The notes beneath the pieces are model-generated. The model ran no database searches and was not told the origin of the DNA. It worked only from the letters and a program-made list of their open reading frames with translations. Both the position numbers and the translations under genes were made by a program. From assembly GCF_004010195.1 (NCBI RefSeq), contig NC_057718.1, positions 42,090,296-42,154,295 on the forward strand: DNA of 64,000 nucleotides, in the 5' to 3' direction. Shown here piece by piece: positions 1 to 43,779 of this stretch (positions are counted from its first letter, which is position 1; each line of letters starts with the position of its first letter). Origin of the DNA: Chiloscyllium plagiosum (lineage: Eukaryota).

Positions 1-400
1 TGGAAGGGTACTGGTTGGTACGGCAGGAAAGGAAGAAGCGGAGGGCTTTGAGTCCTTCGTGATGGGGGATGGAGGTGTACAGGGACTGGATGTCCATGGA
101 GAAGATAAGGGGTTGGGGACCGGGGAAGCGAAAATCATGGAGGAGGTGGAGAGTGTGGGTGGTGTCCCGAACGTAGGTGGGGAGTTCTTGGACTAAGGGG
201 GACAGGACCGTGTCGAGGTATGCAGAGATGAGTTCGGTGGGGCAGGAGCAGGCTGATTCTGGATCAGTGGTGCTGGAAGAGCACAGCAATTCAGGCAGCA
301 TCCGAGGACTGGCAAAATCGACATTTCGGGCAAAAGCCCTTCATCAGGAATAAAGCTGAGACAATATGGGTCGGACGGGGCAGTCAGGTTTGTGGATTTT
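1..400 (-). mobile_element. Penelope-like element (PLE) reverse-transcriptase fragment, interrupted at 257-354
   Basis: Minus-strand translation gives KIHKPDCPVRPILS / SACSCPTELISAYLDTVLSPLVQELPTYVRDTTH...FSMDIQSLYTSIPHHEGLKALRFFL, typical PLE RT motifs. Confidence 0.85.
257..354 (-). mobile_element. Short PLE terminal-repeat (pLTR) insertion with hammerhead core
   Basis: Reverse complement of 314-351 is ATTC-CTGATGA-AGGGC-TTTT-GCCC-GAAA-TGTC-GATTTT; flanked by GCTGA at 252-256 and 355-359. Confidence 0.8.
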
Positions 401-2805
401 AAAATTAGTCTACTTTAATGCAAAAGTTAAAATAATATTTACAGTTCATAAATCGACTATTTTGTTTTGGCGTTAAATAAAGAACAGGCACATAATTCTC
501 TGTGTTTGCTTGTATGTTAATGTTTACAAATGTTTGTTTATATCAGGATAGAAAGCTCCGTGCATCCATGTGCCTAATGACCAAAACTGAGTTCCAGGCT
601 ACAATGATAAATTACATTAAATGAGATTTTCTTCCTAACTTATTAAAATTCCTGAAAAATAGCATACATTACATTGATATTCTCTATCAGATAATGTGCA
701 GATTTTGAATATAGGTCGGACAGGATTTTTTCCTACTAAAACATAATATAATAGCATACATTTTAATATAATTTACTAACACCAGACAACCATGCCATTT
801 TGGGAGTCTTTCTCTGTTCTTCTACAAAACGTAAATGTCACAGAGCACTGTACAAGTTGCAAATGATTCAGCAAAGGGCCACTGTTTTAACACAAGTGTT
901 TTATGATGGACTTCTCTTTATCTTTTGTTACAGTGTAGCAGTTTTCCCAGTTAGACCAGTGCTGTTGAAATAATCATGTAAGTTTCTTCCAAATGATTCC
1001 TGTAATGTTTTATTACTAAGGAAGCCAGTTATAAACAAATGGACAGATAATACCTTTAGTACCATTATAACTAATAGTGCTGATAATTCTTTTGACTTTT
1101 GTCTGTTGGAGTGTGAAATTACAAAGAAAAAAAGGTTCTGAAGTATTTCTTCATTGAGCATTTTCTAACAGGCCCACCAATCTGTTCTCAACTAGAAGAT
1201 AAGAGAGAGGCAGACAGGTAAGAATTCACAGAGGACTTGCTCAGAATTTTCTGACATACTTCCTGCTGTGACACCGCAGAGATTGAAGAAGGCTTGTCAT
1301 TCGGCTGTTGATCTTTGAACTTTAGCAGACACAGATCAAAATGATGTGGAAAGAATTGCTGTGCTTTACATGGGCTGCTTACTGCTTTGGAAGTCCGTCC
1401 TTGATGTCAGTCAAACACAACTGGCACCTGGGAATTCTCAAAGTGAAAATACCAGTAACGATTTGTGTTAACAATGCAAGACTCTCTTTTGTGACAACTT
1501 TATGGCAGAAGGCATTATTAGGAAGTGTTCCTTTCTCTATATTTAAATAGAGTGTTAAACCACTCCCGACAAGCTTGAAATAAAACCTCAATGACAATAA
1601 AATATTTTATAATCATCTACTCTGTGAAAAAGTTTTTAATAGTAATGGAGGCCTAATTAAAGGGGTTCGAATGAAATGTTATTTTTCTAATGTTTACTTT
1701 TCCATCTTTGATCAACTATCAAAGTGAAGCATTTTAATTTTGGTGTCCCAACATAGTAACTCATAACCACAAAGTTTTGTCATGCAGATGAACTTAATAA
1801 AAAAGGGAGATAGAGGGCCAATATTACTCTTGTGCTCTATATTATTGTGTTGTAAGTGTATTCAGGGACTTGCATTTTTGCATAGATTTATGATTTTGTT
1901 TTAAATATTGACCAGTGGAAACCTTTGTCAGAATATCGATATTCTGTCCTCTGATAGTAACTAATTTCTTCCAAAAATAAACAATGAATTTTGATGAATA
2001 ATTTTGGAAAATAATTTGGAAGGACCCATTGTTAGAATTTTTGGTAAGACACCAGTAAAGCTTATTGAATTTAAATGCATACCTCTAGTCCAATATTTTA
2101 GTAAATTGGCGATGCTTTGAAATTTGTTTAAGATTTTTATGTTCTTTATTTATCTTCTGTTGTATTGATCACATCAAGCCTTTTCTGTGCACATAAGCTC
2201 TGTATTGGTTGGAAAAAGCAAAAAACACAAGCCACTGTAACTTATTTTTGAGGATAGGGCATCCTTTTCTTGGTGAGGGGGTTGGGGAGATGGGGATGGA
2301 AACACAGTTAAAGAAACAACATTTGGTCCTCATCTCACCTTTCTTCTCCTGGTATATCTTGATAGCAGCTGCTGACAGTTGCACAGTCCTATGCTAAAGC
2401 AATCGTTCATCATTGTGAGCCAGTGCACAAGTGTCTTTGGCTATTTAAGCTATACAGTGCATCACTGTGGAGTCAATTGTCACCCCATTTCAAAGTAGGA
2501 CTGAGATGGGTTTTTTTTTCCTTCAATATCACTGGATGAACTGACAACAGCTGAGGCTCTCCAACCTCTTGATTCCACCTTTAGTCATCTGGTTAGCTGA
2601 ATGGCGCTTGCCTGATCTCTCAAACTCAGCAGCCAGACAGGCATGGTTCATTTATACTTCGCTTTATGTTGTTTGTTCACTTTTAATATTTTCTGATTTT
2701 AAGAATTTTTGTGAATTGATGGGAAACATACTTTGTTGGGGGAATTCTTATTGATTTCACTTATTGTGAAATACGTTATTGTTTCATAGTCAGCCGTTGA
2801 AGTTG

Positions 2806-2930
2806 CTAAAACAAAAACAGAATTGGAGAAACTCTGCTTTCTTCCCTCATGCTGCCAGACCTGCTGAGTTTCACCAGAAATTTTTGTTTTTGTTTCAGAT
2901 TTCCAGCACCACAGTTGTTTGTTTTATATT
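2806..2930. mobile_element. Degenerate, partly inverted pLTR fragment of an older PLE family
   Basis: atgctgccagacctgctgagtttcaccagaaatttttgtttttgtttcagatttccagca, preceded by an inverted aaaacaaaaacagaa...ggagaaactc. Confidence 0.6.
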
Positions 2931-3231
2931 TTTGAAGTTGCTAATTTCTGTGTACTTCATCTCCTCTTAACAGTACAAACCAGTGCCAACTGTAATGTAT
3001 TCATATTTGTTGACATATGCTCAGGAAGTTTTACCTACGGCAAGCTGGTACACAAGGCACACTGTCATCAAATGGCAGGATACATATGTGTTCCTATAAT
3101 TCCTGATCCCAATCTAACTCAATTTGTCAAAACAGGGCTCTGAGCTGAGACCAGACACTTCCAAAAGCAGTCTGACAGATCTCTTTGTAGCCCATATGAT
3201 GGCCTTTAACAGATATTCAGGGAGAACTTAC

Positions 3232-3282
3232 CTATGCGATTGTCAGCCATAGAGCAACACATTGCACAGGATGAAGGAGAAG
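3232..3282 (-). CDS. Candidate 51-nt internal exon (phase 1-1) of an unidentified gene, xSPSSCAMCCSMADNRI
   Basis: Minus-strand acceptor attttattttctctctttag and donor TAG|gtaagt; length is a multiple of 3; only one frame is open; lies in non-repetitive sequence; no homology recognised. Confidence 0.4.
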   Translation of the reverse strand, partial: LLLHPVQCVALWLTIA

Positions 3283-3548
3283 CTAAAGAGAGAAAATAAA
3301 ATCTGACCCAACATTTTGTACCATAGTAATTTATTTTCCAGAGCAATGTTTTAGCATTGCATTCCATATGTGTTCTAGAAAAATTTTAAAAATCTTTGGT
3401 ATTTTCATTTGAACAAGATCTTTGATCGTTTTGAAAACAAACATAAGATATCTTTTAGGGGCAAGGATTAACATCATTGAAAGAAGATAAACAAAAACAT
3501 TGTTTTCCATTTTTCATCAAACATTTGTTTTGCTGATTTCTGTCTATA

Positions 3549-3984: not shown

Positions 3985-4227
3985 TAACATAAAGGATAAT
4001 CAGGCTAAAGAGTTAGTTACAGGTTTTAAAAGTTTTATATTTTTGAGTTTAGGGAAGGGTACTGGTTGGAACAGCGTGAGAGGAAGAATCGGAGGGTTTG
4101 GAGGTCTTTGTCATGGCAGATGGATGTGCACAGGGACTAGATGTCCATGGTGAAGTAACATAAAGGATAATCAGGCTAAAGAGTTAGTTACAGGTTTTAA
4201 AAGTTTTATATTTTTGAGTTTAGGGAA
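3985..4227. repeat. 72-bp direct duplication flanking a copied PLE RT fragment
   Basis: 3985-4056 is identical to 4156-4227; the intervening 4053-4155 matches 4414-4516 with 2 mismatches. Confidence 0.9.
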
Positions 4228-4245
4228 AGGCCAACTGAAAAATAT

Positions 4246-4965
4246 TGTCATCCTTGGTGATGGACTGTTCCACGTACCCGACAAAGAGGCAGGCATATCT
4301 GGGTCCATGCGGGTGCCCATGGCTACCCCTTTGAATTGGAGGAAGTGGGAGGATTGGAAAGATAAATTGTTAAGGGTGAGGACCATTTCATCCAGGCGGA
4401 TGAGGGTGTTGGTGGAAGGGTACTGGTTGGAACAGCATGAGAGGAAGAATCGGAGGGTTTGGAGGTCTTTGTCATGGCAGGTGGATGTGCACAGGGACTA
4501 GATGTCCATGGTGAAGATGAGGCGTTGGGGCTGTGGAAACAAAAATCTTGGAGGTGAAGGGCATGGGTGGTGCCCTGAACATAGATGGTGTTGAGGGTTG
4601 CAGAGATGAGGTCAGTGGGACAGGAGCAGGCTGAGACAATGTGTTGCCTGGTAAAGTCAGGTTTGTAAATCTTTGGTAGGAGGTAGAAATGGATGGTGTG
4701 GTTGGAGGCTGCGGGTGGGAGATCCCCAGAGGTAATGAGGTTGTGGATGGTCTGGGAGATGATGAGATTGGAAGGGGAAGTTGTTAAGGGTGAGGACCAG
4801 TTCAGCCAGGCGGATGAAGCTGTCAGTGGAAGGTTAGTGGGATTGGAAGGAGAAGTTGTTAAGGGTGGATTGGATTCTTGATGAAGGGTTTATGCTGAAA
4901 CATCAATTCTCCTGCTTCTCTGATGCTGCCTGACCTGCTGTGCTTTTCCAGCACCCTACTCTCGA
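4246..4965. mobile_element. Inverted PLE insertion: RT fragment (-) joined to pLTR (+)
   Basis: Minus-strand VLTLNNLSFQSSHFLQFKGVAMGTRM (PLE RT motif B); pLTR at 4873-4965 on plus; perfect 14-bp TSD CAACTGAAAAATAT at 4232-4245 and 4966-4979. Confidence 0.85.
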
Positions 4966-5069
4966 CAACTGAAAAATATGTTTTGACAATTCTTTTGTTA
5001 AAATAGTATAATGTATTTAATTAGTGCCCAAAAGGACAAGAGCTTCCCTTTAATTCCTCCCTTCAACTG

Positions 5070-5745
5070 ATCAGGGCACCGAACAGCCTTTCCAGGTCAA
5101 AAATTGATATTATTTATTTTCCAATTGGGTACTTACTGCTCACAATGGGGCCTCCGCTGCAATGGAGATGCCCAACCCCAGATTCTGTCATCATTGATAG
5201 ACATCTCAGTTCGTTCTTAAAGCATGACCCTGATACTTCAGTCATTTGCCTTTTTAATTTTCAATTTTATTCCCAACCTAACCACACTGTCCTCGCCGCT
5301 GACTGCACTGTTCCAATGAAATGCAATCAAAACTTGAGGGACTGTACCTCATCTTTCAATCAGGCACTTTACAACCTTACAGATTCAAAAACGGAATTCT
5401 AAAATTTAAGATCATAATCTCTATCCCCATTTTCTTGGACATCTTGCGCAGTTGCCATTTACATTTGTTCTACACTATTGTTTTTTTATTGATCCCAAAG
5501 ACACCCTTTTATTGCCTTACACCATTATCTCTTTTCACCACTCTGGCCTTCCACCCCAGACCTCTTTTGTTCTCTGATTTTGTGTTTATTCCCTCCCTAT
5601 CCCATATATGTTTATAAATTGTTACATCTCTAACTTCTTCCAGCTTTAATGAAAGACCATAAACACTAAGCACTCATCCTGCTCCTCCCTCTAGATGGTG
5701 ACTAGACTTGGTGAGTCTTTCCAGCATTTTCTGGGTTTATCTCAG
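5070..5745 (+). mobile_element. Decayed PLE 3' end: GIY-YIG endonuclease region plus pLTR
   Basis: Fragments YCSQWGL, RHLSSFLKHDPDTSVICLFN and LHCSNEMQSKLEGLYLIFQSGTLQP resemble the PLE endonuclease C-terminus; decayed pLTR (ctttccagcattttctg) follows. Confidence 0.75.
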
Positions 5746-5874
5746 GTGGTTGATTGTTCATGGTGATCATTAGCAGATAGTAAAAATTTGAAATGAGTTC
5801 ATATGAAAACATAATGCCTATTCAAATAATTTTTAAAAATCAAATCTATTAGAAAACCAAATGTGTGGACAGTT

Positions 5875-7841: not shown

Positions 7842-9330
7842 TACTTTCATTTTTATCAGAGTTATTTCAATGTTCACTACCTCAAGATGATACCCAATGG
7901 AATGTACAATTGAGGGCTGATTTGTTTTTGTGCCAAATCATTTGCTACAATTCATATAATGCATTACTCAGTCATTTTCCATTGTTTAAAATCATTATCT
8001 CTACTTACAAGACTCATCACAAATCACCTGATATTCTGATTTCCTGAGACTTGTTCAGTCTCATAATGAAAGATATTCATTGCAGAGGTGAACTTTCACT
8101 GACTCCCCCCACAACTATAATAGGTATCTAGCAGAATTGCTTGATGGAATGGAATTAGACCAAGACTGACCTTAATTAGGAAATTCCAATTTGTCATGTA
8201 AGAGGATGGAGTTTCTATTACATTTTAACAAAACCAGCCATGGCAGAGCAAGTGGAAGTGAGGTCAGGTCTCCCTCTGCTGAATTTATCATTTTCCCAGC
8301 CCATGGCAGGCCAAGCTCTAACTAACATCTTTGAAGGTGGGAAGTGCATCTCTGCTCATGCAATGATGGCTGAGCATTGAAAGTGCCTGCTGCACGAGGC
8401 AATCAGGCTCCTAGAAGGCACCATTAGCCCATCTTAATGAGGTATCCTCACATGGACTGAAAAATATCAGAGTAAGCCCTGGAAGGCAGTGCTGAGCATG
8501 ATCACATGCCCAATTTAAGAGCTGCTACTTCCCTAAATCATTTGCCTTGTTATTGAAGATGAACATAGTTCTATTATGTTTTCATGGAAGCTTGGCAGTG
8601 GACAATGAGAAGAGTAAATCCTGCAAAATAATGAAACTTTTGAAGGCAGAATTTTCCCAGCATGGTGTGGACAGTTTTGTGAGCATTTGGGATGACCAAG
8701 TTCTGGAAAATAACAGATTCCAATGTGATTCTAGCCTCTTCCTGGAAGAGTTGATAACCAGTGGGGAACCACCATGGGTCTGATGGGAAAACAGTTGATG
8801 TGATTAAATAGGCAATTAAGAGCCTTCTTGAACATGGTGAAGAGGATATAAGGAAGCCACAAAAAGCTGTAGATAGGTTACGTGAGCAGACAAAAATTCA
8901 GCAAATGACTTGATATTGCTCATTTTAGCAGGAAGAACACAGAAGGAGCATAAATTTCTGACGGGGAGAGATTGCAGAACTCTGAAATACTGAGGGATCT
9001 GGATGTCCTAGTGTAGAAATCACAAAAGATTAAAAGGCAGGTACATCAAGTCATTAGGAAAACCGATATAATGTTATTATTTACTGTGAGAAGAGTACAA
9101 AAATAGGGAGGCTAAGGCTCAGTTATGCAGGGTACTGGTGAGACCATGTCTGGAGTACTGTGCACAGTATTGTCAGCTTATTTAAGGCTGGGTGTAAATG
9201 CATTGGAAGCAATTCAGAGAAGATCTATCAGCCTAATGTCTGGAATGGGTGGATTGTCTTAAGTAAAGACTGGACAGACTAGGCTTGTAGATGCTGGAGT
9301 TTAGAAGAATAAGAGGGAACATGACTGAAA

Positions 9331-9628
9331 TTAGATTAGATTACTTACAGTGTGGAAACAGGCCCTTCGGCCCAACAAGTCCACACCCTGACCCTCCGAA
9401 GAGCAACCCACCTAGACCCATTCCCCTATATTTACCCCTTCACCTAACACTATGGGCAATTTAACATGGCCAATTCTCCTAACTTGCACATCTTTGGACT
9501 GTGGGAGGAAACCGGAGCACACGGAGGAAACCCACGCAGACACGGGGAGTACGTGCAAACTCCACACCGACGGTTGCCAGAGGCGGGAATTGAACCCCGG
9601 TCCCTGGTGCTAACCACTGTGCCGCCCA
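9331..9628 (-). mobile_element. HE1-type tRNA-derived V-SINE
   Basis: On minus: tRNA head GGGCGGCACAGTGGTTAGCAC with B box GGTTCAATTCCC, V-domain GTGTGGAGTTTGCAC...CTCCCCGTGTCTGCGTGGGTTTCC, CR1-derived tail ending in (TAATC)n. Confidence 0.9.
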
Positions 9629-9632
9629 AGAA

Positions 9633-9928
9633 ATTAGATTACCTACAGTATGCAAACAGGCCCTTCAGCCCAACAAGTCCACACCGACCCTCCAAAGAGC
9701 AACTCACCCAGACCTATTCCCCTACATCTATCCTTGACTAATGTACCTAATATTATGGGCAATTTAGCTTGGCCAATTCACCTAACCTGCACATCTTTGC
9801 ACTGTGGGAGGAAACCCCACATAGACACAGGGAGAATGTCTGTGTAGAGTTTGCACAGTCGCCCAAGGTGGAAATTGAACCTGGGTCCCTGGCGCTATGA
9901 GGCAGCAGTGCTAACCACTGAGCCTCCC
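9633..9928 (-). mobile_element. HE1-type V-SINE, second tandem copy
   Basis: Same structure as 9331-9628 with an internal deletion; head GGCTCAGTGGTTAGCACTGCTGCC. Confidence 0.9.
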
Positions 9929-10118
9929 CTGAGGGATCTTGACAGGGTAGGTGTGGGAAGGATGTTTCATTTTTTGGGAGAATCCAGAACTAGATGTCAC
10001 TGTTTAAGAATCTGAGATTGCCTATTTAAAAGAAAGATTGGGCAAAACCTTTTCATTCAGAGGGTTGAGTGTTTTTGAAACTCTGTTCCTGAAAATATGA
10101 CTCTATGGTGGAGGCAGA

Positions 10119-10326
10119 ATTAGATTAGATTAGATTACTTACAGTGTGGAAACAGGCCCTTCGGCCCAACAGGTCCACACCGACCCGCCGAAGCGCAACC
10201 CACCCATACCCCTACATTTACCCCATGGCCAATTCACCTGACCTGCACATCTTTGGACTGTGGGAGGAAACTGGAGCACCCAGAGGAAACCCACGCAGAC
10301 ACGGGGAGAACGTGCAAACTCCACAC
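10119..10326 (-). mobile_element. HE1-type V-SINE, 5'-truncated
   Basis: V-domain and (TTAGA)n tail present; tRNA head missing. Confidence 0.9.
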
Positions 10327-11020: not shown

Positions 11021-11039
11021 AGCCAACAAACTGGAAAGG

Positions 11040-11727
11040 ATTACCTTGGAGTGCAGTTTCATAATTCCTTCAAAGTAGAGTTGCAGGTAGATAGGGTAGT
11101 GATGCAGGCATAATACTCTGACTAATAACAGAAAGTGAGTACAGAAGTTGGGAGGTCATGTTGCAGCTGTACAGGACATTGGTTAAGCCACTTTTGGAAT
11201 ATTGCATGCAATTCTGATCTCCTTATCGGAAGGATGTTGTGAAACTTGAAAGGGTTCAGAAAAGATTTACAGGAATGTTACTAGGGTTGGAGGATTTGAG
11301 CTATAGGGAGAGGATGTATAGGCTGGGGCTGTTTTCCCTGGAGCGTCGGAGGCTGAGGGCTGACCTTAAAGAGGTTAATAAAATCATGAGGGGCATGGAT
11401 AGGATAAATAGACAAAGTCTCTTCCCTGGGGTGGGGGAGTCCCGAACTAGAGGGCATAGGTTTAGGGTGAGAGGGGTAAGATATAAAAGAGACCTAAGGG
11501 ACAACCTTTTCATGTGAGGGTGTTTCGTGTATGGAATTAGCTGCCAGAGGAAGTGATGGAGACTGGTACAATTGCAACATTTAAAAGGCATTTGGATGGG
11601 TATATGAATAGTAAGAGTTTGGAGTGATATGGGCCAGGTGCTGGCATGTGGGACTAGATTGGGTTGGGATATCTGGTCAGCATGGATGAGTTGGAACATC
11701 TGTGCTGTACATCTCTATGACTCTATT
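11040..11727 (+). mobile_element. CR1 LINE 3' end
   Basis: KLERVQKRFTGML...RLGLFSLERRRLRADL...GESRTRGHRFRVRG; tail ctctatgactctat. Confidence 0.92.
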
Positions 11728-11769
11728 TGATTAGTTACAATGAAGAGCACCAGTCCTGAACTAATACTC

Positions 11770-14974: not shown

Positions 14975-15072
14975 CAAGGGGGGAATGGTTCTGGTGGGTT
15001 GCTCTTCGGAGTGTTGGTGTGGATTTGTTGGGCTGAAGGGCCTGTTTCCACACTGTAAATCATCTAATCTAA
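14975..15072 (+). mobile_element. HE1 SINE / CR1 3' tail fragment
   Basis: gttgggctgaagggcctgtttccacactgtaaatcatctaatctaa. Confidence 0.8.
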
Positions 15073-15477
15073 TTGGATTTTAAACTGAAATGTCAGTTTA
15101 ATCCATGTTTTGCCCAAGTTGAAACATGGCAAAAAGTTGAAGCCAGTACTAAGAATAGCTGGTCAAAAGCTGGTGAAATACTTAATTATCACATTTAAAA
15201 CATTTACACTCATTAAAGAAATTACACAGCATTTTGCTGGATTATGCTTTAACCAGCTGGAAGCAAACGTGTTAACTTTCAGCATTACTTAAAGGGATAA
15301 TCACCACTTGACATGATACTCACCACTTCATCAACATTGCAGCAGGGGATGTGAAGATGACCTTTAAAAACAATGAGATGCTTTGTCAATTCTCTATCAA
15401 CACTCAGGTGATGTTCATTCTTGAAATTCTCTGAGCCCTTCACTAAATATCTGAGTGTTTTACTTCTCCACTTTAAC

Positions 15478-15890: not shown

Positions 15891-15913
15891 AATTGACAAC
15901 CCAGTACCCTATA

Positions 15914-16060
15914 AGAAGGTGAGGACTGCAGATGCTGGAGAGTCAGAGTCAAAAAGTGTGGCACTGGTAAAGCACAGCAAGTCAGGCAGCATCCGAGGAG
16001 CAGGAGAATCTATATTTCGGGCTGCCTGACCTGCTGTGCTTTTCCAGCAGCACACTTTTT
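15914..16060. mobile_element. Inverted short PLE pLTR insertion
   Basis: Minus arm gtgaggactgcagatgctggag...tttcggg joined to plus arm gctgcctgacctgctgtgcttttccagca; imperfect TSD aacccagt(a)ccc at 15898 and 16061. Confidence 0.8.
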
Positions 16061-19000
16061 AACCCAGTCCCAATATGGTCATACCCAAAAACATGTGCAC
16101 CATTCACTTATTTCCTGAAACATCTTGAAATAAGCTGCTTTCCATCAGCCAGGACAGTCCACACTATCAGTGGAAATATGTGTGAAGAACCCACATGTAC
16201 CGTTCCTTGAAAATTACAGCATTTAATGACAAAACCTGCAGGTGTCCATCTAGCACCTCCAGGCAATTTCACATTATGGTAATCAGCAATTAATCTCAAA
16301 ATTGTGTGCTAAATCAGCACTTTCAAGCAGATTAGCTTTAGCAGCACTACACCCATTTAACTTCTGTTTTCACCCTTTGGTCATAGTAAGTCCCCCACAT
16401 GTTCTGTTTGAAAGTAAATTACAATTAAAACTAAATTATATAAATGTTGTTGTGAAAATTGACTTGGTTTGGTTTCTAAAATTTGTGCTTTTCTTTGATG
16501 CAGTATGGGTAGTTGTTCACAAAATAAGTTTCAGTGCATTAAAGTCACAATAGACAGCTACCTCTTCATGAGGTTATATAGTTAAATGACAGATTTTACT
16601 TCACTATAGATTTTAAAGAATGACTTTGAAGTCACATTTGATTTTGCAGTCTCCATATCTACTGAAAAACCTCCTCTGATGTCAGTTCATATTTAATAAT
16701 GTTGATATTCTAGTGCTAGCTGTCGGTTTTCATTCAGGCCTGATGAAGAGACATCAAAGTTTTGAAAGTTAACTGGTATTTTACTCTGAAGTGTGTTCTA
16801 ATTCATACTTCGGAACTGTTTTAAAACCTTCACTATACTGCAATTCTTTTCCTCCATCAAGCTGAAATACATGGGTAAAGATTCAATCTATATTTATTTC
16901 AAACAAAGCCAAGATGGGAGAATATATGTACTGCTAACTTTCTCCTTAACTCTGTTTTAATGGGAATCAGATACTTTGTGTAGACACAGACATAAAAAAA
17001 ATCCCTGATTCAAATAGTTCTATATCTCTTACTTAGCAGCCACAATGCTATTGATTGCTCCTTGAATTTGTGTTATTTCTCCCTAGATGACTGTACAAGT
17101 AGGACTGATTTGTCATTTGATCTCTGCTCAAAAATACATTTACATACAATTCTTTCCAGGCCTCTTTGCGGACAAAGGTCTTTCAGTGAACAGGTCCATC
17201 TCAATCCAACATTAACTTCCTCTGCATACGGCTGTCAGTCTGTTAGTGAGTAAACTGCTGGCGTCCCACTGTCCCACCTATTGCACTTCCTCTTGCTTGG
17301 CAGTGGGCCGTTTCAGAACCTGAGCCAAGGTGAATTCTCACTGGATGGCCCATCACAAATTGATCTCTAAATGACACCAAGCAGGCAAGAGAAAACACAG
17401 CAGGAGGGGGAATTTTTATGATCTTTAAATGACAATGCTTTCTGTGATCCATAAGTGCAATCCACTGTCAATGGGATAATAATTACTTCTGCAGAGATAT
17501 TGTGACTGTGAGGCAGAACCAATTTAGCTAGTACAGATTAGCAGGTCAGCTCAGTGCTGTATGACTCCAGCCCGTTTTAAAAAAAACCTTCATTTTGCTT
17601 AGATTTTTTGCATGGTCTTTTTTTACAGGCTATGATAAATGTAGTGAGAGCTCCACTAGAGTCCATTTATCACTGTCTGGGCCAGAAAACATTAAGGGAG
17701 TGCAGGCTTCCAATGACACCTACATGGTGGAGTTTGGTAATAATGGAAAATTTACTTGAGTTGGTGTCAGTGGTCATTAGGCTTTTCTAACCTGGCTGTG
17801 CACTAAGTAGCTTGGGTTAAAAGCAGAAGAGAGCAGTGAATAAGACAAAAAGAAGTTAAGTGCCAAATGATTTAAATCTGGTAAATTCATCAGTTACTGT
17901 TAACTGCTCAGTTGCAGGCATATTAAACCTGTCCTGAAGCCAGCTGGTGGGGACAGGGAACAATTTATATATATCCATACATTTTATTCACAGCTCCACT
18001 ACATATGAGGCTGCATATGTAAGTTAACTGGTATTTTACTCTGGAGTGCATTAGTGAGGACAATTAGCTCAAGTAAAATGCAACTAAAATAGAGGTAAAA
18101 ATAAATAAGATCAGATCACATTGGCTGAATTACTAAAACAATGCTGTGGAATATCTGGCTAATTTGCACATAGGAGTGTGTGTGATTTATTAATGATCTT
18201 AAAAAAGGATTATGCAATGTTTATGGAACAATACAGCCAAGCATCAGAAGACAGCAGTGGAAATTGTAAAATAAATGGATAACAAATGATTGTGATATGT
18301 CCGATTAGGAAATATTATTAAAAAATGTATAGTAAAAGTTGTAGTCAGAAATGAGAGTGAAATGTAATAATTATATTTGCCACATGAAGGTAACCAAATA
18401 ACTCTCCAGTGACAAGTATTGGATGAGTTATGGCCAGTCTCACCAGAGGACATTTTTATTGTATCACTTTGCTGACCATTACAAAGATTGTATCCCACAA
18501 GTTATTTGATTATATTAATGTTAATGGAGCCTATTATGAGGGTGAGGGCCCTTTAATACCTTGCACTAAATTATTTGAATGGTCTCTCACATCTCTCGAG
18601 GTGACTGGTTGCCATCTTGAGAATCCTCCCAGTGTGGAGTTCAGTTTTAAAAAAGCATCGGGGCAAATACAGCCTTAATAGCATTATAATTGACCAATTT
18701 GTCTCAGTGCTAGTTTAAATTTCTAGCTCTGTGACTTTACCCCTCTGAATTTTTAAAAACATGTAAGTGGAACTAAAGATGGCAGGACTACAATCTTTAC
18801 CCATCCTGTGACATCCTAGCAAGTTAGTTAAAAGACATGTATTTAGTTGACATCCTATCTCTGTCTTTCCATCACTCCATAAGGCTTTTAATAGTGCAAG
18901 ATAAATTTTGCAAGATCCCAATTTTTCAAGTAATGGAATTAAACCACTCTCCTTGCATTCTGAGCTGTCAGTGCTTCACTGAAGATCATTTTACATCTGC

Positions 19001-22177: not shown

Positions 22178-22406
22178 ATTAAGGGTGGTACATGTATGGA
22201 ATGAGCTGCCAGAGGATGTGGTGGAGGCTGGTACAATTGCAACATTTAAGAGGCATTTGGATGGGTATATGAATAGGAAGGGTTTGGAGGGATATCGGCC
22301 GGGTGCTGGCAGGTGGGACTAGATTGGGTTGGGATATCTGGTCGGCATGGACGGGTTGGACCGAAGGGTCTGTTTCCATGCTGTACATTTCTATGAGTCT
22401 ATGACT
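22178..22406 (+). mobile_element. CR1 3' end
   Basis: tggaatgagctgccagagg...gaccgaagggtctgtttccatgctgtac; tail ctatgagtctatgact. Confidence 0.9.
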
Positions 22407-23504: not shown

Positions 23505-24575
23505 CTCGAAGGTAGGAGAAAGAGGGTGGTGGTGAAGGGTTGCTTTTTGGACTGGAATTATGTGATGAGCATAGTGCCATAGGCATCAGTGCTTGTTCCA
23601 CTGCTTTTAGTCATTTATGTAAATTATTTAGACATGAACATAGGAGATATGGTTAGGACATTTGTAGAAAACACCAAAATTGCTGGTGTAATGGACAGCC
23701 AAGAAAGTTACCTCAGGGTACAATGGGACCTTGATCTGATGGGCTGAGGAGATGCAGATGGAGTTTAATTTAGATAAATATGAAGTGCTGCAATGGAAAG
23801 GCAAATCAGGGCAGAACTTACACACTTAATGGTAAGGTTCCGGGAAGTGTTGCTGAACAAAGAGACTTTGGAGTGCAGATTCATAGTTCCCCGAAAGTGG
23901 AGTCGCAGGTAGACAGGATAGTGAAGTACGTATTGGGAACGCTTGCCTTTATTGGTCAGTGCATTGAGTATAGGAGTTGGGAGGTCATATTGCACTGTAC
24001 AGGACATTGGTTAACCCACTTTTGGAATATTGTGTGCAATTCTGGTCTCCTTCCTATAGGAAGGATGCTGTGGAACCTGAAATGGTTCAGAAAAGATTTC
24101 CAAGGATGTTGCCAGGGATGGAGGGTTTGAGTATAGGGAGAGGCTGAATAGGCTGGGACTGTTTTCCCTGGAGCACCGGAGGCTGAGGAGTGATCTTATA
24201 GAAGTTTATAAAATCATGAGGGGCATGAATAGAGTGAAGAGCCAAAGTCTTTTCCCTAGGATAAGGGAGTCCAAAACTAGAGGGCATAGGTTTAAGGTAA
24301 GGGGGAAAGATTTAAAAGGGACCTGAAGGACAATTTTTTCATGCAGAGGATGGTGTGTGTATAGAATGAGCTGCCAGAGGAGATGGTGAGATTGGTACAG
24401 TTACAACATTTAAAAGGCTTCTGGATGGGTATATGAAGGGTTTTGAGGGATAGGGCCAAATGCTGGAAAATGGCACTCGATTAATTTAGGATATTTGGTT
24501 GGCATGGGCAGGTTTGACTGAAGGGTCTGTTTCCGTGCAGTACAGCTTAATGAATCCATGATGCTCTGACTCTAA
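23505..24575 (+). mobile_element. Younger CR1 3' portion nested in the older CR1
   Basis: GRTYTLNGKVPGSVAEQRDFGVQIHSSPKVESQVDRIVK...; ends in a CR1 tail at about 24570. Confidence 0.85.
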
Positions 24576-25841
24576 GTATGCTCAGAGGGGAGGAGAAAGA
24601 AGATATCAGAGAAGTAAAGATGAATTAGAAGAAAAGACTGGCAGCCAAAGTAAGGGGGATTCGCAAAGTCTTCCATAGGCATACAATTAGTAGAAGGGTT
24701 GTGAAAGGTGGAATAGGATTGATTAGAGACCCAGAAAGAGATTTCAGCCTGGAGGTTAAGGGGGAGAGGAGATTTGTAGCAGAAGTGTTAAATGAATACT
24801 TTGCATCTGTCTTTACCAGAGAGATAGATACTACCCAGACCATGGTGACAGAGTGTAAACTCATTATAAGTTGAATAAGGAAGAATTATTGGATATTCTG
24901 CTCGTACTTAAAGTTGACAAGGCCCCGGGATCCACGGGGAGTGAAAGTGGAAAGTGTGGGACATTAGCCATAATCTTTCAATCTTCGCTAGACTCAGGTG
25001 AGGTGCCAGAAGACACAAAAATTGCATAGTTTCTGGCCTTATTCAAAATGAAAAGTTTTTAAGGATAAGTACAACATTTACAGATCATTCAGTTTAACTT
25101 CAGTCGTGAGGAACCTTCTAAAAAGACTTATTCGGGAGAAAATTAGTAGTCACGGGAAAATTTTGATTGATCTGGAAGAGCCAACATGGATTCCTGAAGG
25201 GAAAATTGCATTTAACAAACTTGTTAGAGTTTTCCAATGATGTAACAGAAAGGGTTGTTGAGGATAATGATGTTCATGGACTTCCAGCTGTTTGATACAG
25301 TGACATACAACAGATTTGGAAGAAACTTTATAGCTCAAGATGTTATAGGAACAGTAGCAACATGGATATAGAATTTGATTCAGTGATAGGAAACAATATG
25401 TAATGGGTGAATGAATTTTTTGGGGTTGGAAGAATGGTTGTAGTGGAATATCCCAGAAATGGACATCAGGACAATTGCATTTGCTGATATATATTGATCG
25501 ACTGGATCTTGGTGTATAGTGGACAAGTTTGCAGATGATACAAAACTTTGGAACATTGGTAATTGGTGAAGAAGTCAGTGCATTACTTCAAGAGGCTATA
25601 GACAAGTTGGTGGAATGGGCAGATAGGTGGCAAGTTGAAATTCAATGTGGACAAGTATATGGTGATGCATTTTGCTAGGAAAAACAATGGCAGACAATAT
25701 AAATTTAGAGGCATAATTCTAAAAAGAGTGCAGGAGTAGAGGGACCTGCATGTATATATGCACAGATTATTGAAAGTGGCAAGAACAGTAAGTAATGCAT
25801 ACAGTATCCTTAGCTTCATGAATAGGTTCATCGAGAACAAA

Positions 25842-26071
25842 GGCGAAAGTGAGGACTGCAGATGCTGGAGATTAGAGTCAAGAGTTGTGGTACTGAAAAA
25901 GCACAGCAGGTCAGGCAGCATCTGGGGAGCAGGAAAACCGATGTTTCAGGCAAAAGCCCTTCATCAGGAATGAGTTCATTCCTGATGAAGGGCTTTTGCC
26001 CGAAATATCGATTTTCCTGCTCTTCGGATGCTGCCTGACTTGCTGTGCTTTTCCAGCACCTCACTCTTGAC
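25842..26071. mobile_element. Head-to-head palindromic PLE pLTR insertion with two hammerhead cores
   Basis: Inverted repeat centred on AGGAATGA-GT-TCATTCCT (about 25974); plus-strand core CTGATGA-AGGGC-TTTT-GCCC-GAAA-TATC at 25982-26009; TSD tcatcga(g/a)aacaaa at 25828-25841 and 26072-26085. Confidence 0.88.
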
Positions 26072-26513
26072 TCATCGAAAACAAAAGCAAGGAAATGATG
26101 TTGAAAGTGTGAAAGGCATGTGCTAGACCTGGGCATCACTATATAGGAATGATGTGAATGGATTGAGAGTGTCCAGAAGAGATTTACATAAAATGTAGCA
26201 GGGATGAGAGAATTCCGTTATGGGGACAGATTGGAGAGGGGTTGGGAATATTCTCATTGGAGAGAGGGTGACTGAGGAGATATGTGATATAAGTTTTCAA
26301 AATTATGAGTAGGGCTGGGTAGAATAGATATGGAAGAACATTTTCCTCTCTTAAAGGGGTCAAGATCAAAAGATCACCGATTTGAGGTGATTTCCAAAGC
26401 AAGCAAGTGTAATGTGAGGAAAATAATTAGTTTGAGTCTGGAATGCACTGCCTGAAAGTGGGGTGGAGGCAGGTTCAAATGAGGTATTCATGAGGGGTTT
26501 CAATTCAAATAAT

Positions 26514-26661
26514 TGAATTCAGGAACAGGAGAATCAACGTTTCGGGCACAAGCCCTTCTTCAGGAATCTGTTCCTGTTCCTTGGATGCTGCCTGACCTGC
26601 GCTTTTCCAGCAACACATTTTCAGCTCTGATCTCCAGCTTCTGCAGCCCTCACTTTCTCCT
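26514..26661. mobile_element. Inverted short PLE pLTR insertion with hammerhead core
   Basis: Reverse complement of 26531-26568 is GATTC-CTGAAGA-AGGGC-TTGT-GCCC-GAAACGTT-GATTC; perfect 11-bp TSD ATTCAAATAAT at 26503-26513 and 26662-26672. Confidence 0.88.
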
Positions 26662-28198
26662 ATTCAAATAATGTGCCAGGGTGCAGAGAAAAGTCAGGAG
26701 AATAGCATTAAGTCATGATGCTCATTTGGAGAGCAGGTGCAGACAAGATGGGCTGAATAGCTTCCTTTTGCACTGTGATTCTGTGAGTATAGGCATTCAC
26801 ACATTTTTCATTGAGAGGGTTACATTATACTATTGATACCAGGATTTTCACAAACATTCTATTTAGGATGGCATAATATTTACAGCCTAGAAATAGGCCA
26901 TTTGGCTTAAATGGTCGATGCAAGTGTTTATATTTTCACAAGTAGGTATGCAGATTGTGAGAAAATTCTGTCAGTTTTACAGGAGTTTGCTTTCTTGCTT
27001 CCATGGTAACTTTTTTTTAAAGATCTTAATTGGAGAAAGAAGAATAGAGTGATACTGATGCATCTAAACTTTTGACATCGATAGCTGTTGATGTTAGTAG
27101 TGAAGAGAAAACTAATTTAACTAACTGTGCGTAATGAACAGATAGATTCCCAATTGCCTTTGCCCAGTGGGAAAATACTGCTCCTCTGGGCTGACTGCGA
27201 ACTGTCAATGTGAACATGATAACCACGTTGGAGAGTGGGAAGGCTGCCAATATTAAAATTTCTATCAGCAAGATGTGCATGTTACAAGAGAGTACTTTTT
27301 TCTACAAAGCTTTTAAATAACAAACATTATTGCAAAGTTTTAGGTGAATTTTTGAAATGACCATAGCATAAAAAAGACTTATGAATTAGCTTAATTTAAA
27401 ACATTAAAATATGTAAAGGGTTTTTAATGTAAGAAAATATATTCTTGACATGTGGTGGCACTCGTGAATCATCAATTCTTTGTGCTATGAACAACAGTGG
27501 AATGTTATAAGAACAAAGGAACAGAAGGAGGGGCATTCTGGCTTTCAGCTTGTTCCACCATTCACTTGGATCAGTGAAACTCACTTGGACATATTTATAG
27601 ACATGCTGGGGGAAGGGTGGGTAGGTGATGTTTGTCAAATAATCTGGAATTGCTTACTAAGGTAGACTAGTTATGTGCTGGCAGGTAGGAATGGAGTGTG
27701 ACTACTACCACGCATGGCATGTCGTCGGCTAACTTTTCAACTAAGAGAGGAGTCTGCATTGAAGAGGCCTGCATGAGAGTGAGCAGGAGGATTGCTAGTT
27801 CAATGCACAGTTAACAGGGATGGTGATGGATGTCAGGTGAATTCATCCTTCTTCAAGACAGAGGAAGATTTATTTTAAAATATTAAAGTACTACATACTT
27901 AATCTCAAAGAGTATCAGTTACTTTAAAATCATTGTTGGCATAATCTTTATGGACAGCATTTTCATACTGTGCATTCTACACAGTATCTTAATTTAGATT
28001 TGTAATTTAAGTTCAGTCTTATCATTTCAGTTTCAAAATTATCCATTAACCTAGCTTCAACATTTTTTGGGGGAGAAAGTTCTATATTCCTCCTGACTAT
28101 TTATTTGAAGAAGTACAATTTCACAACTCTCCTGAATGGTTTAGCTCTAATTTTGGAGTTAGACACCCCGTTCTGAACTCCTCCACTTGAGAAAATAG

Positions 28199-28222
28199 TC
28201 TCTCTCTCTCTCTCTCTCTCTC
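28199..28222. repeat. (TC)n microsatellite
   Basis: Direct reading. Confidence 0.95.
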
Positions 28223-34255: not shown

Positions 34256-34755
34256 NNNNNNNNNNNNNNNNNNNNNNNNNNNNNNNNNNNNNNNNNNNNN
34301 NNNNNNNNNNNNNNNNNNNNNNNNNNNNNNNNNNNNNNNNNNNNNNNNNNNNNNNNNNNNNNNNNNNNNNNNNNNNNNNNNNNNNNNNNNNNNNNNNNNN
34401 NNNNNNNNNNNNNNNNNNNNNNNNNNNNNNNNNNNNNNNNNNNNNNNNNNNNNNNNNNNNNNNNNNNNNNNNNNNNNNNNNNNNNNNNNNNNNNNNNNNN
34501 NNNNNNNNNNNNNNNNNNNNNNNNNNNNNNNNNNNNNNNNNNNNNNNNNNNNNNNNNNNNNNNNNNNNNNNNNNNNNNNNNNNNNNNNNNNNNNNNNNNN
34601 NNNNNNNNNNNNNNNNNNNNNNNNNNNNNNNNNNNNNNNNNNNNNNNNNNNNNNNNNNNNNNNNNNNNNNNNNNNNNNNNNNNNNNNNNNNNNNNNNNNN
34701 NNNNNNNNNNNNNNNNNNNNNNNNNNNNNNNNNNNNNNNNNNNNNNNNNNNNNNN
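34256..34755. other. Assembly gap (500 N)
   Basis: Exactly 500 N, consistent with a fixed-size scaffolding join. Confidence 0.99.
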
Positions 34756-38599: not shown

Positions 38600-39230
38600 C
38601 ACGTGTATGAATCTATGAATTTAGGAGCAAGTGCAGGCCATTAGATCCATTGAGCCTGCTCCACCATTTAATATAGGATCATGGGTGATCTGTTTATTGT
38701 ACATTCCCACCTACCCTGATGACCATTCACCTTTTTGTTTAACAAAGAATATACCAATCTCTGCCGTAAAAACATACAAGAACTCTGCTTACATCATCTT
38801 TTTGAGGAAAAGGATAGTGAAGACTTACAGGGAGAAAATGAGGACTGCAGATGCTGGAGATGAGAGTCAAGATTAGAGTGGTGCTGGAAAAGCACAGCAG
38901 GTCAGGCAGCATCTGAGGAGCAGGAAAATCATCGTTTTGAGCAAAAGCCCTTCATCACGAATGAATGTAAAGATTTACAGCCAACCCCACTGACACCTGC
39001 CCCCAGGGTGAAAACAATCTCTTCTCTGCTTTAAATGGGCAACATCTTATTTTTATAGTGACTCTTAGTTCCTGATTCTCCATATTCAACCAGTCAAGAC
39101 TCCTCAGGTTCCTATATGTTTCAATCAAGTCACTTCTTGCTCCTGTAAACTCCAGTGAATACAAGCTAAGTCTGCCTGACATTTCCTCATCTGGTGATCT
39201 ATCCTTTCCAGGTATTAATCCAGTAAAACA
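38600..39230 (-). mobile_element. Decayed CR1 3' end with nested pLTR
   Basis: RLSLYSLEFTGARSDLIETYRNLRSLD; 3' UTR caggccattagatccattgagcctgctccaccatt. Confidence 0.75.
38831..38966 (-). mobile_element. Short PLE pLTR insertion with degenerate hammerhead core
   Basis: ggagaaaatgaggactgcagatgctggag...gcaaaagcccttcatcacgaat; TSD gt(g/a)aaga(c/t)ttacag at 38817-38830 and 38967-38980. Confidence 0.82.
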
Positions 39231-41015: not shown

Positions 41016-41024
41016 AGAAAATTA

Positions 41025-42035: not shown

Positions 42036-43059
42036 AGTTGGATTTTATCGCTGGATCCAAATCCTTGGATACTTTGGAAATGCTGCAACTACAAGAATAT
42101 GGATAAAAATCTGGGATTTGGATTATGTTGGATAGCTTTTTTTTCAGCCAGGACAGATGTGATAGACTTAATGGCCTTCTACTGCACCCTAATTTTCTCA
42201 CTTTCATGAGATTCCTGGCTACTCAGTCACAATTACCTTCCATAAGAATGGCAAAGAGAAATTTGTGTGGAGAGGCCATATGAAAAGAAGAGTCAGGCTG
42301 ACATGCACCACTACTTGTTTCATGATACGGTTGTTCATAACCAAAGGGAAGCCTTAGAAGTGAAAAGTATTATAAAGTAATAACATCAAGAAATCCTGTG
42401 GTGGACTGGTTGTTCACCTCTATTAAAAATGAATAAGGGTTTTATCCATCAATTTTGTTTCCTGGTTCAGATTTTCTGCACTTTAACCTTTTCCAATTCA
42501 GTCCACAGTGTTGGAAAATTTGTGTAATGATGATTAGGTCAGTTAGAAAGAAGTTTCACAAACAGAACTACTGTACAAAGTGAAATAAAAATGACAAGCA
42601 TTGGAAATATGGAAGTCAGACAGTATCTTTTGTGATGAAAAAACTGAATTAATGTTTTAAATCTGTGGCATTTCACCATTGTCCCAACATGGCTGAATAA
42701 GCTTCCTGACATGACCTTGTGCAGCACTTTAGTCTGATTATGTTTCAGCAAACTGGGTGGCCGAGATTAGGGGAAGGCAGGTTATGCTGGAAAAGGTGTA
42801 TAAAACATTGGTTAGGCCACAGCTTGAGTACTGTGTGCAGTTCTGGCATCCACATTATAGGAGGGACGTGATGGACTTGAGAAGGTACATAGGAGGTTTA
42901 TCAGGATGTTGCCTGGGCAGGAGAGGTTTAGTTATGAAGAGAGTTTGGTAGACTGGATAAAAATATGTGAGGCAAAGACAGGGTAAAAAGGAAGGAATCT
43001 TTCCCCTTGGTGGAGGGATCAATGACTGGTGTCATAGATTTAACGTAAGGGGCAAATTG

Positions 43060-43427
43060 CAGAGATCGGCACAATTGCAGTCTCATGGTGGTCTCAGTAG
43101 AAGCAAGATGGCACCAAAGAATGGAAACACTTTTTTGTGGCGGCAGAATGGCAAAGAGACTCGAGGCTGGCTGATTGCTTCGTGCTGATGTTGGCTCAGT
43201 GTGGATGACCCCATATCTAAGCCCATGTGTAAGCACTTAATAAGGACTGTACTGTTGAACTTTTAACTTTATTTCTTTACTTTTCTACCTTTATACACCA
43301 TGTCTGGTTTACTTCTGTGTTTTCAGATGGTACAGGAAGATGGCAACGTTATACAACACTTCACTGAATTTGTAACAAATATATACAACAAATACATGTG
43401 ATAGTAAATCAATCAATCATTCAAATC
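43060..43427 (+). mobile_element. Unclassified non-autonomous retroelement with a Rex1-like tail, nested in CR1
   Basis: Interrupts the CR1 between RGK and FRGDV-like codons; ends tacatgtgatagtaaatcaatcaatcattcaaatc. Confidence 0.5.
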
Positions 43428-43570
43428 AGGAGGCTTAGAGGTGATGTGACAAAAACATTTTTCACCCAAAACATGGTGAGAATCTGGAACTTATTGTCTG
43501 TAAGGATGATAGAGGTAGGAACTTTCAGAACATTGAAGAAGAATTTAGATTTGTGCTTGCAATGCCACAG

Positions 43571-43779
43571 TACATAGAGTGTGGCACTGGAAAAAGCACA
43601 GCAGGTCGGGCAGCATCTGAGGAGCAGGAGAGTTGATGTTTCGGGCAGGACCCTTCATCAGGCCTGCCCAAAATGTTGACTCTCTGCTCCTCAGATGCTG
43701 CCTGACCTGCTGTGCTTTTTCTAATGCCACACTCTATCTACACTGACTCTTTAGCATCTGCAGTCCTCACTATCTCCTA
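43571..43779. mobile_element. Inverted PLE pLTR insertion with hammerhead core
   Basis: Reverse complement of 43631-43662 is C-CTGATGA-AGGG-TCCTG-CCC-GAAACATC-AACT; TSD cttgca(a/g)tgccacag at 43556-43570 and 43780-43794. Confidence 0.86.

Follow-up and report, generated by a model that had tools for sequence, protein, structure and literature searches.

Head-to-head insertions of the hammerhead-bearing terminal module of a Penelope-like element in Chiloscyllium plagiosum

In the twin priming of L1 elements, cDNA is primed from both target strands, which leaves an inverted 5' part within one target-site duplication (TSD); the second primer binds at varying internal positions, and overlap between the two arms is slight. 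Published insertions of Penelope-like elements (PLEs) are described as 5'-truncated, with an inverted terminal repeat (pLTR), a one-sided tail of 30-40 bp and a TSD (PMC3846280, PMC8557442). The PLE protein of the green anole is reported to cut and extend both strands in vitro and to insert uncleaved RNA, using two internal start sites with tail-length spacing, and is predicted to be a dimer (PMC11167929).

The minimal hammerheads of metazoan PLEs (Cervera and De la Pena 2014, PMC4209133) are described as having a conserved core with a single unpaired base between A9 and G10.1, a G10.1-C11.1 pair, a palindromic CG in place of helix III and a short helix I, and as occurring mostly as single dispersed copies, with some opposite-strand pairs 100-700 bp apart. 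The shark copies analysed here are alike in all these respects, but their helix II has 4 bp, compared with 6-8 bp in the schistosome and fly motifs of that report, and most of their subfamilies carry a helix I T-T mismatch that sets them apart from the hammerheads described there.

Minimal hammerheads, inverted ends, a tail on one side only and two start sites have all been published before, and as an object the present family is ordinary, PLE ends with minimal hammerheads being both described and abundant. Its value is as a fossil record of the way in which PLEs come by their inverted ends and one-sided tails. The number of insertions yields statistics beyond the reach of single elements, namely a near-absolute pairing of long with short ends, agreement between arms, and a 5' boundary preceded by an extra G, from which direct predictions follow for the in vitro system already described.

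Copies in the window and their parent element

The copies are the terminal ~130 nt, a hammerhead plus 'tail', of an abundant PLE encoding a reverse transcriptase (RT) and a GIY-YIG endonuclease. This module comprises an initiator-like site (+1), the hammerhead (+5 to +32) and fixed 3' ends near +94 (short) and +130 (long), and copies that run beyond +130 reach the ATG of the ORF at +167. The gap-free copies L105 and L113 have the order RT, GIY-YIG, UTR, module; the L113 ORF matches Pfam RVT_1 at 140-321 (31 bits, cut-off 29.6, E 2.5e-7) and GIY-YIG at 558-588 (21.4 bits, just under the cut-off of 22.6, E 3e-4). The module lies downstream of the ORF and 3' UTR, following the ORF in L105, L113, L114 and others, and it also precedes the ATG in L065, L197 and L264; none of 20 long candidates, most with assembly gaps, is a complete gap-free pLTR-ORF-pLTR copy. 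The hallmarks of a PLE are present: a single ORF with RT then C-terminal GIY-YIG, an inverted 5'-truncated copy, a one-sided tail of 30-40 bp and a TSD. Its motif layout and its likeness to the anole element suggest that it is Poseidon-like.

The window is the whole 64-kb stretch of DNA analysed. A sequence-only reading had listed seven related copies in it and credited them to PLE machinery, rightly on both counts: all seven are present where it placed them and are mutually related (nhmmer E 1e-5 to 1e-37). Four of the seven are head-to-head inversions with two arms, a fifth (4246-4965) joins an arm to an inverted RT piece, and TSDs of 11-15 bp flank six. The two-armed structure and the TSDs had been missed in that reading.

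At the left of the window an RT-coding remnant (1-256, minus strand), 94% identical to young copies, reaches an assembly gap. It is interrupted by a single arm in the same orientation (257-354, -), which extends from the hammerhead through the short 3' end with A+1 at 351, an intact core, loop III changed from CG to TG and a duplication at insertion of only ~5 bp; the remnant continues upstream at 355-400 (-). An older RT remnant (4246-4872, -; 75-80% identity to young copies), whose RT match spans 4259-4867 (-) and part of which has a local duplicate at 4053-4155 (-), forms the inverted left part of a single insertion, 4246-4965 (TSD 4232-4245 and 4966-4979). The other part is an arm with the short 3' end (4873-4965, +) that starts with G and then A+1 (4874), and has a degenerate core with C3 changed to T and helix II shortened. 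A very old remnant of the GIY-YIG region (5049-5407, +) was recovered with an iterated DNA profile (E 1.6e-20) and gave no tblastn match at E up to 1. The earlier identification of RT and GIY-YIG remnants stands, for the latter by profile, but their assignment to one donor element does not, since their ages differ (94%, 75-83% and detectable by profile only), the endonuclease remnant being an older fragment in its own right.

The four head-to-head pairs occupy both strands. In 15914-16060 (TSD 15898-15908 and 16061-16071) the long-ended arm 15914-16022 (-) begins at +21 and the short-ended arm 16021-16060 (+) at +53, and most of the hammerhead core is absent. In 25842-26071 (TSD 25828-25841 and 26072-26085) the long-ended arm 25842-25974 (-) begins at -3 and the short-ended arm 25976-26071 (+) at -2, both with the core present. 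The pair at 26514-26661 (TSD 26503-26513 and 26662-26672) joins a 47-nt arm, 26521-26567 (-), which begins with G then A+1 and has the core present with CG kept and T at position 17, to a long-ended arm, 26572-26661 (+), beginning at +38. The last, 43571-43779 (TSD 43556-43570 and 43780-43794), consists of a short-ended arm, 43571-43662 (-), which begins at +4 and has the core, and a long-ended arm, 43665-43779 (+), which begins at +20. A solo long-ended arm at 38831-38966 (-; TSD 38817-38830 and 38967-38980) begins at -2 and has a degenerate core, with C3 changed to G and G12 to A.

The core pattern CTGA(T/A)GA-A-GGG(C/T)-loop-GCC(C/T)-GAAA-NN-T(C/T) is found in five arms, at 347 (-), 25967 (-), 25982 (+), 26563 (-) and 43661 (-). 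These lie at four loci, in agreement with the four core-bearing copies reported previously, and the changes at C3 and the missing core described above confirm that the other three are degenerate or partly deleted. Five matches in the window compare with none in 100 first-order Markov simulations, for a pattern that was built after the copies had been seen. Among 101 sampled ungapped arms the core is intact in 65, and 97 of 606 letters at CpG sites deviate from the commonest letter, 87 of these being C>T or G>A, as against 69 of 1919 at the 19 non-CpG core sites, so the CpG decay proposed earlier is borne out. The order CUGANGA, GAAA, UH in the five window arms is that of type I; in 22 copies 94% of helix II cells, with G10.1-C11.1, are paired, and variation is concentrated in loop II and N7. 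Predicted pairing probabilities are 0.99 or more for helix II, and for helix I 0.03-0.08 in two subfamilies and about 0.5 in a third. Covariation in helices I and II amounts to one double-change pair (2 cells) and does not exceed the shuffled level (81 to 331 of 500), and alignment folding gave no covariation support for a downstream stem (covariation term -0.1). An Rfam scan of the window, the check suggested by the sequence-only reading, found none of the hammerhead families at E up to 5; it gave only sub-threshold miRNA-hairpin matches, which are due to the inverted arms. On core order and helix II pairing, the motif is nonetheless, as first read, a predicted minimal type I hammerhead from the pLTR of a PLE. 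It would be a passenger in the stubs, and the parent transcript would at best cleave as a dimer, as described for minimal hammerheads (PMC4209133 and the review PMC6765202), or with protein help.

Inverted pairs and 3' ends

The 3' ends of 208 arms are bimodal, at two sites ~35 nt apart, and of 79 head-to-head pairs that could be classified, 77 combine a long end with a short one. A random sample of 60 pairs comprised 49 long+short, one short+short, no long+long and 10 unclassifiable (49 of 50 classifiable; binomial p 5e-14), and a second set of 39 comprised 28, none, one and 10, respectively. L202 unites two long ends from different subfamilies. TSDs of at least 9 bp flank 49 of 65 pairs, compared with 28 of 300 control draws. 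In 39 of the 52 pairs that could be scored, out of 67 found, the two arms carry the same haplotype at 4 sites, where shuffling gave a mean of 10.4 and at most 21 in 5000 rounds; within one young subfamily 28 of 32 do so, compared with 12.9. Shared haplotypes could also stem from a single source gene or from conversion between arms.

Overall, the copies are best read as stubs of the PLE terminal module, probably made anew at each insertion by the machinery of the autonomous element. The endonuclease would cut the two target strands about 12-16 bp apart, and reverse transcription would be primed internally on the RNA from both nicks, at the +130 site from one and at the +94 site from the other; a protein dimer would likely supply a subunit for each priming, acting on a single RNA or on two transcribed from the same source gene, with mostly uncleaved RNA as template. 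If the module's 5' copy is the template, synthesis would run off the likely capped start of the RNA after 95-130 nt, and the two cDNA ends would be joined through microhomology to give an inverted pair, or one end would be joined to the target to give a solo arm. We favour two-nick, two-site priming with fair confidence. That both priming sites lie on a single RNA molecule is plausible, if open to real doubt, and we offer only tentatively the full scheme of a PLE dimer with one capped uncleaved RNA, cDNA from both nicks at dedicated sites 35 nt apart, and a 5' signal 95-130 nt from the cap, so that run-off dominates. If true, it would explain at once why the pLTR is inverted, why the tail is on one side and why tiny hammerhead stubs are so plentiful, and the element's start site and cap could be read from genomic junctions in the hundreds of thousands. 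The start sites described in vitro are alike on the top and bottom strands (PMC11167929), and the strict long+short rule is therefore not predicted unless the complex is asymmetric.

It is also conceivable, if unlikely, that the inverted arm comes from a single cDNA that folds back or primes itself, or is made on antisense RNA in the way suggested for rotifer PLEs, with endonuclease-mediated resolution trimming the tail at one end. Self-priming has been proposed (PMC3846280), as has an origin of the tail in resolution (PMC8557442); such a route would predict long+short ends and shared haplotypes too, and would suit those junctions that are palindromic or overlap by 10-36 nt. However, solo arms comprise 46 short and 54 long, so that the short end needs no partner; either arm of a pair may extend further 5' (the short in 28, the long in 19, equal in 3 of 50); junctions often contain filler letters; and the two sites match the two RT start sites reported in vitro (PMC11167929).

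5' ends and the +1 site

The 5' ends cluster at an initiator-like motif 4 nt upstream of the core, scattering from -3 to +3 and decaying over the next 20 nt. Among 196 arms away from gaps and edges, 67 start at -8 to +3 and 13 at -99 to -9, a density of 6.1 versus 0.14 per base (p 1e-51); 25 start further upstream or at the reference end, and 91 downstream of +3. In one subfamily, for which exact genome counts were made, the letter before +1 is the element's own C in 12479 cases, G in 2799, A in 1357 and T in 518, so that G makes up 60% of non-C letters against an expected 26% (genome) or 40% (partner-arm composition). None of 30 long arms has G before +1, and a +33 control gave, by eye among the matches listed, about 36 G to 64 A. 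In a second subfamily the G excess is less marked (by eye, 47 G, 42 A and 11 T among the first 100 of 2067; against the partner-arm null, p is 0.08, or 0.006 without 12 palindrome-junction rows), and the few A-type arms lack it (1 G of 8). At many G junctions a G is also found in the target or the partner arm, and the extra G may reflect microhomology or terminal transferase bias. Realignment of helix I as its source is weakened by the finding that G is also commonest where the subfamily's +33 word differs.

The sequence-only reading had suggested looking for RNA 5' ends after GUC. In the genomic junctions the ends precede the ribozyme, and exact counts exclude a +1-like peak at the cut site, though not a small one. 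In the young subfamily a purine precedes +33 in 1068 cases, +30 in 1037 and +25 in 1376, and in the A-type the figures are 931 versus 753; by eye, in an inspection of the +33 set, ~14 of 30 loci are point changes and not junctions. A shoulder of starts immediately downstream of the cut site in older A/D-type arms, where 19 of 106 lie at +33 to +42 and 4 at +21 to +32, counts against the favoured reading.

We consider it reasonably probable that +1 is the transcription start, a reading drawn from DNA junctions. A splice-acceptor origin of the limit, recalling the D. virilis intron reported to end at helix I (PMC4209133), was rejected because 30 G-junction loci have no common upstream exon. The pile-up might instead reflect stalling or fall-off of RT at the folded hammerhead, or at a bound protein, on a long read-through RNA, which we think rather unlikely. 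Starts do decay over +4 to +20, within the ribozyme, the older arms have their +33 to +42 shoulder, helix II is strongly predicted, and the +1 start comes from DNA junctions and not from RNA ends. Yet the peak lies beyond the structure, where the enzyme has already copied all of the hammerhead, and it is single-base sharp on an initiator-like motif; perfect palindromic junctions unite two +1-ended arms (9 pairs in the first 100 rows and 6 among the matches listed for the second subfamily), and an extra G precedes +1.

Status of the copies and relation to known systems

In 1.35 Mb of sampled genome there is one insertion per ~8 kb, and the density of about 1 per 9 kb first given for the window holds genome-wide at about 1 per 8-9 kb, which extrapolates to ~0.4 million insertions. 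The sequence-only reading saw in them an abundant non-autonomous, retrozyme-like family of pLTR-only RNAs, transcribed, self-cleaved and re-mobilised in trans. Such a family could draw on the large excess of short over ORF-bearing copies (only 25 of 196 arms reach far upstream), on the definition of both ends, on a direct two-hammerhead tandem in L065, 334 bp apart, on a rearranged junction at -163 common to L012 and L056 (some rearranged copies being possibly recopied), and on a 2026 preprint that derives animal retrozymes from PLE pLTRs (10.64898/2026.07.22.740005). It is nevertheless improbable, and the copies very probably do not form a separate family, because short and long arms interleave on the tree and no tandem array was seen. 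The tree of 64 short and 29 long arms (87 columns, weak support) contains no short-specific clade; its labels are mildly clustered, with 21 changes against a shuffled mean of 24.6 (27 of 500 shuffles as low), and arms whose subfamily UTR is outside the 17 references could be miscalled short. Identical rows occur in both groups, within the power of a short alignment, and every inspected subfamily occurs also at the 3' end of UTR- or ORF-bearing copies. Junctions vary from copy to copy, TRF found no tandem array in the window, L065 is the one clear two-unit tandem among 12 same-strand neighbours in 1.35 Mb, and the 5' ends precede the core, so that the cleavage product is not the unit. Not counted as evidence either way is the one usable raw-read RNA run of four, two others being contigs and one empty: in this run, from a library of a type that cannot show small circles, 94% of reads continue into unrelated flanks and no pile-up of starts or ends was listed. 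Plain random truncation of full-length insertions, which the sequence-only reading had named as a refutation of its view and which the typical 5' truncation of PLEs (PMC8557442) and the 91 scattered starts downstream of +3 might suggest, is highly improbable, the strongly non-random ends and above all the 5' cliff already contradicting it unless the cliff is an alignment artefact.

Dispersed hammerhead 'monomers' scored as retrozymes in vertebrate genomes may, we caution, be insertion by-products. Metazoan non-LTR retrozymes are described as similarly short and non-coding, with a type I hammerhead, kinship to PLE pLTRs and dispersed monomers (PMC7229834, 10.64898/2026.07.22.740005). They are, however, reported as head-to-tail tandem repeats of 150-450 bp expressed as circular RNA, with canonical hammerheads in the 2020 paper (PMC7229834), whereas copies of the type in the window are solo or inverted, carry a minimal hammerhead and have no tandem organisation.

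The green anole Poseidon element PAc (Frangieh et al. 2024, PMC11167929) resembles the present element in its RT followed by a C-terminal GIY-YIG, its hammerhead at the pLTR-ORF junction, its uncleaved RNA template and its two internal RT start sites spaced by the tail, and the distance from start site to stem II is 111-118 nt for its preferred site and about 118 nt here for the long end. The PAc ORF starts in stem II and its start sites lie in the ORF, whereas here the ATG is at +167 and both sites lie in the 5' UTR; the paper describes neither strand asymmetry nor 5' run-off stubs. Endonuclease-bearing PLE insertions are described with the same head-to-head inverted 5' copy, one-end tail, TSD and microhomology junctions (PMC3846280, PMC8557442), and those studied here differ in their small size, often just 100-230 bp end to end, in a sharp 5' limit and in a quantified tail rule (77 of 79). 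In contrast to L1 twin priming, the two primers here would begin at fixed positions 35 nt from each other, and both arms are copies of one and the same stretch.

The window copies and their abundance

The seven related copies that had been picked out from the sequence alone, at 257-354, 4873-4965, 15914-16060, 25842-26071, 26514-26661, 38831-38966 and 43571-43779, were all recovered at these positions and match one another. At the four loci proposed to carry a hammerhead core, the core is kept in five arms, each arm being one copy of a module that comprises the hammerhead and its tail at the end of a Penelope-like element (PLE), and helix II is 4 bp long. A pattern fitted to these five arms was never matched when the window was simulated 100 times with a Markov model, and an Rfam scan of the window was without a matching hammerhead model. 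In four of the seven copies two arms meet head to head as an inversion, a fifth adjoins an RT piece in inverted orientation, and target-site duplications (TSDs) of 11-15 bp are present at six. CpG decay accounts for most of the core change, as was suggested previously: among 101 sampled arms, CpG sites show 97 changed letters out of 606 and non-CpG core positions 69 out of 1919.

Several other structures lie nearby. Older, weakly matching counterparts of the module, belonging to other PLE families, occur at 2805-2910 (which looks palindromic), 5658-5747 and 48313-48385, and about 65 bp of target DNA is in tandem duplicate around a duplicate RT piece at approximately 3985-4222, immediately to the left of the insertion at 4246-4965. 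The seventh copy's long end, together with the right flank of that copy, lies in an 86% local duplication (43715-43819 and 44725-44829), which thus reflects copying of host DNA after the insertion and not a further insertion. Runs of N fill 34256-34755 within the window and the 1.5 kb immediately outside its left edge. We take the repeats at 9329-10326 and 14979-15074 to be abundant SINE-like copies, and those at 11136-11739, 20585-24561, 42796-43054 and 58004-59784 to be LINE-like 3' fragments, all unrelated to the module.

Abundance was estimated from a sample of the 37 largest contigs, taken as 140 segments of 10 kb placed at round coordinates and together holding 1,353,094 non-N bases, in which a profile search found 308 arms. 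Of these, 208 passed thresholds of 0.84 for identity, 45 for length and 60 for score when compared with 17 natural references, five of which come from the sample itself and are hence self-matching; the remainder are older relatives or short pieces. The 208 arms comprise 103 solo (unpaired) arms and 60 head-to-head pairs, giving one insertion per 8.3 kb in this 1.35 Mb, in agreement with the density of about 1 per 9 kb estimated from the window, and by extrapolation about 0.4 million insertions in the 3.56 Gb genome.

The parent element and the 5' ends of the arms

A genome search using the RT piece of the window yielded 22,502 candidates, of which 20 long ones were examined; many long PLE copies in the assembly have internal gaps. 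Two of the 20 (L105 and L113) have the order RT, GIY-YIG, pyrimidine-rich 3' UTR and then the same module. Numbering from +1, the A four bases before core position C3, with the predicted cut after +32, the sequence past +130 reaches an ATG at +167 in L065, L197 and L264. The module therefore lies both at the 3' end and in the 5' UTR of the element, which, judged from sequence, is the pLTR layout of PLEs. The RT and GIY-YIG remnants reported in the window are indeed present, at 1-256 (RT, 94% identity), 4053-4867 (RT, 75-83% identity) and 5049-5407 (the GIY-YIG region, detected only by a DNA profile), but they differ in age and are therefore not the single donor that the sequence-only reading had proposed. 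Several copies bearing the ORF start (in L002, L010, L100 and L104) end or jump near +250 (+248 to +254), which may mark a third start site or a frequent template-jump point.

For the 196 arms not adjoining gaps or edges, the 5' end lies at -8 to +3 in 67, at -99 to -9 in 13, further upstream or at the reference end in 25, and downstream of +3 in 91. The letters around +1 (pyrimidine-pyrimidine-A+1-T-T-C-C) match the initiator consensus. In exact genome counts with a 39-letter word of one subfamily, the base before +1 is C in 12,479 cases, G in 2,799, A in 1,357 and T in 518; by eye, about 20 of 30 C-preceded loci run far into the UTR and the others stop within 12 bases. G thus forms 60% of the non-C bases, versus 26% or 40% under two nulls, an excess that would be expected if the RT copies the cap, although many of these Gs are also present in the target or partner, which counts against such a reading. 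Also against it, the excess is weaker in a second subfamily (47 G, 42 A and 11 T among the first 100 of 2,067 matches), and G precedes +1 in one of eight A-type arms.

Pairing of long and short arms

The 3' ends are bimodal, lying near +130 (long) or near +94 (short). Solo arms are divided between the two classes (54 long, 46 short and 3 other), and the 60 sampled pairs comprise 49 long+short, one short+short, no long+long and 10 unclassifiable. A second set of 90 further loci, chosen by the 5' word of one arm, contained 39 pairs, 28 of them long+short, one long+long and 10 unclassifiable. Of the 52 pairs that could be scored, 39 also carry one four-site haplotype on both arms (10.4 when shuffled); within one subfamily the figure is 28 of 32 (12.9 when shuffled).

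Parts of a possible explanation are already in print, namely inverted ends, a one-sided tail, two start sites and a predicted dimer. Two PLE reports (PMC8557442, PMC3846280) describe a tail that is 'often at one end', as well as the inverted copy, and a report on an anole element describes two internal RT start sites, cutting and extension of both strands, and a protein predicted to be a dimer (PMC11167929). Joining these parts to our counts, we propose that two nicks, each priming RT at one of the two sites, would generate long+short pairs; a rival explanation is that the inverted arm is formed by fold-back and trimmed afterwards. In our incomplete coverage of the literature we found no publication stating the strict long+short rule, the concordance of arms or the cap-like G.

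The hammerhead, its predicted cleavage and comparison with known systems

The core is intact in 65 of 101 arms, with the CG and helix pairs also intact in 41; covariation in the helices is not above that of shuffles. Exact genome counts in two subfamilies show no footprint peak at the predicted cut site like that at +1 (1,068 versus 1,037 and 1,376 at neighbouring controls in the young subfamily, and 931 versus 753 in the A-type), from which we infer that most RNA templates were uncleaved. In older arms, starts also form a shoulder between +33 and +42 (19 of 106, versus 4 at +21 to +32; young arms, 3 versus 3), which may reflect minor cleavage in vivo or pausing.

The proposal of a separate, non-autonomous retrozyme-like family is not upheld. 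Long and short arms interleave on a tree of 93 arms, albeit one built on 87 columns and with weak support (21 label changes versus 24.6 when shuffled, with 27 of 500 shuffles as low), and tandem units, the defining trait of non-LTR retrozymes (PMC7229834; preprint 10.64898/2026.07.22.740005), were not found in the window and were clear only once in the 1.35 Mb sample; we therefore do not file the module copies as retrozymes. In the single case, L065:2137-2711, TSDs flank an insertion in which an inverted short arm accompanies two hammerhead units in direct orientation, spaced by 334 bp; the more upstream of these units extends 105 nt into the ORF, and the whole resembles a retrozyme dimer. Two unlinked copies (L012:9355 and L056:8353) are joined at -163, by an identical junction, to an inverted stretch of RT-coding sequence, and are possibly a recopied rearranged element.

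Parallels are found among published PLEs. The anole element uses uncleaved template in vitro (PMC11167929), as proposed here for most copies. For the D. virilis PLE a promoter inside the pLTR has been described, but its start is about 120 nt before helix I (PMC2377424). The published minimal PLE hammerhead has the same extra base after A9, the same G-C closing pair and, likewise, a CG replacing helix III (PMC4209133).
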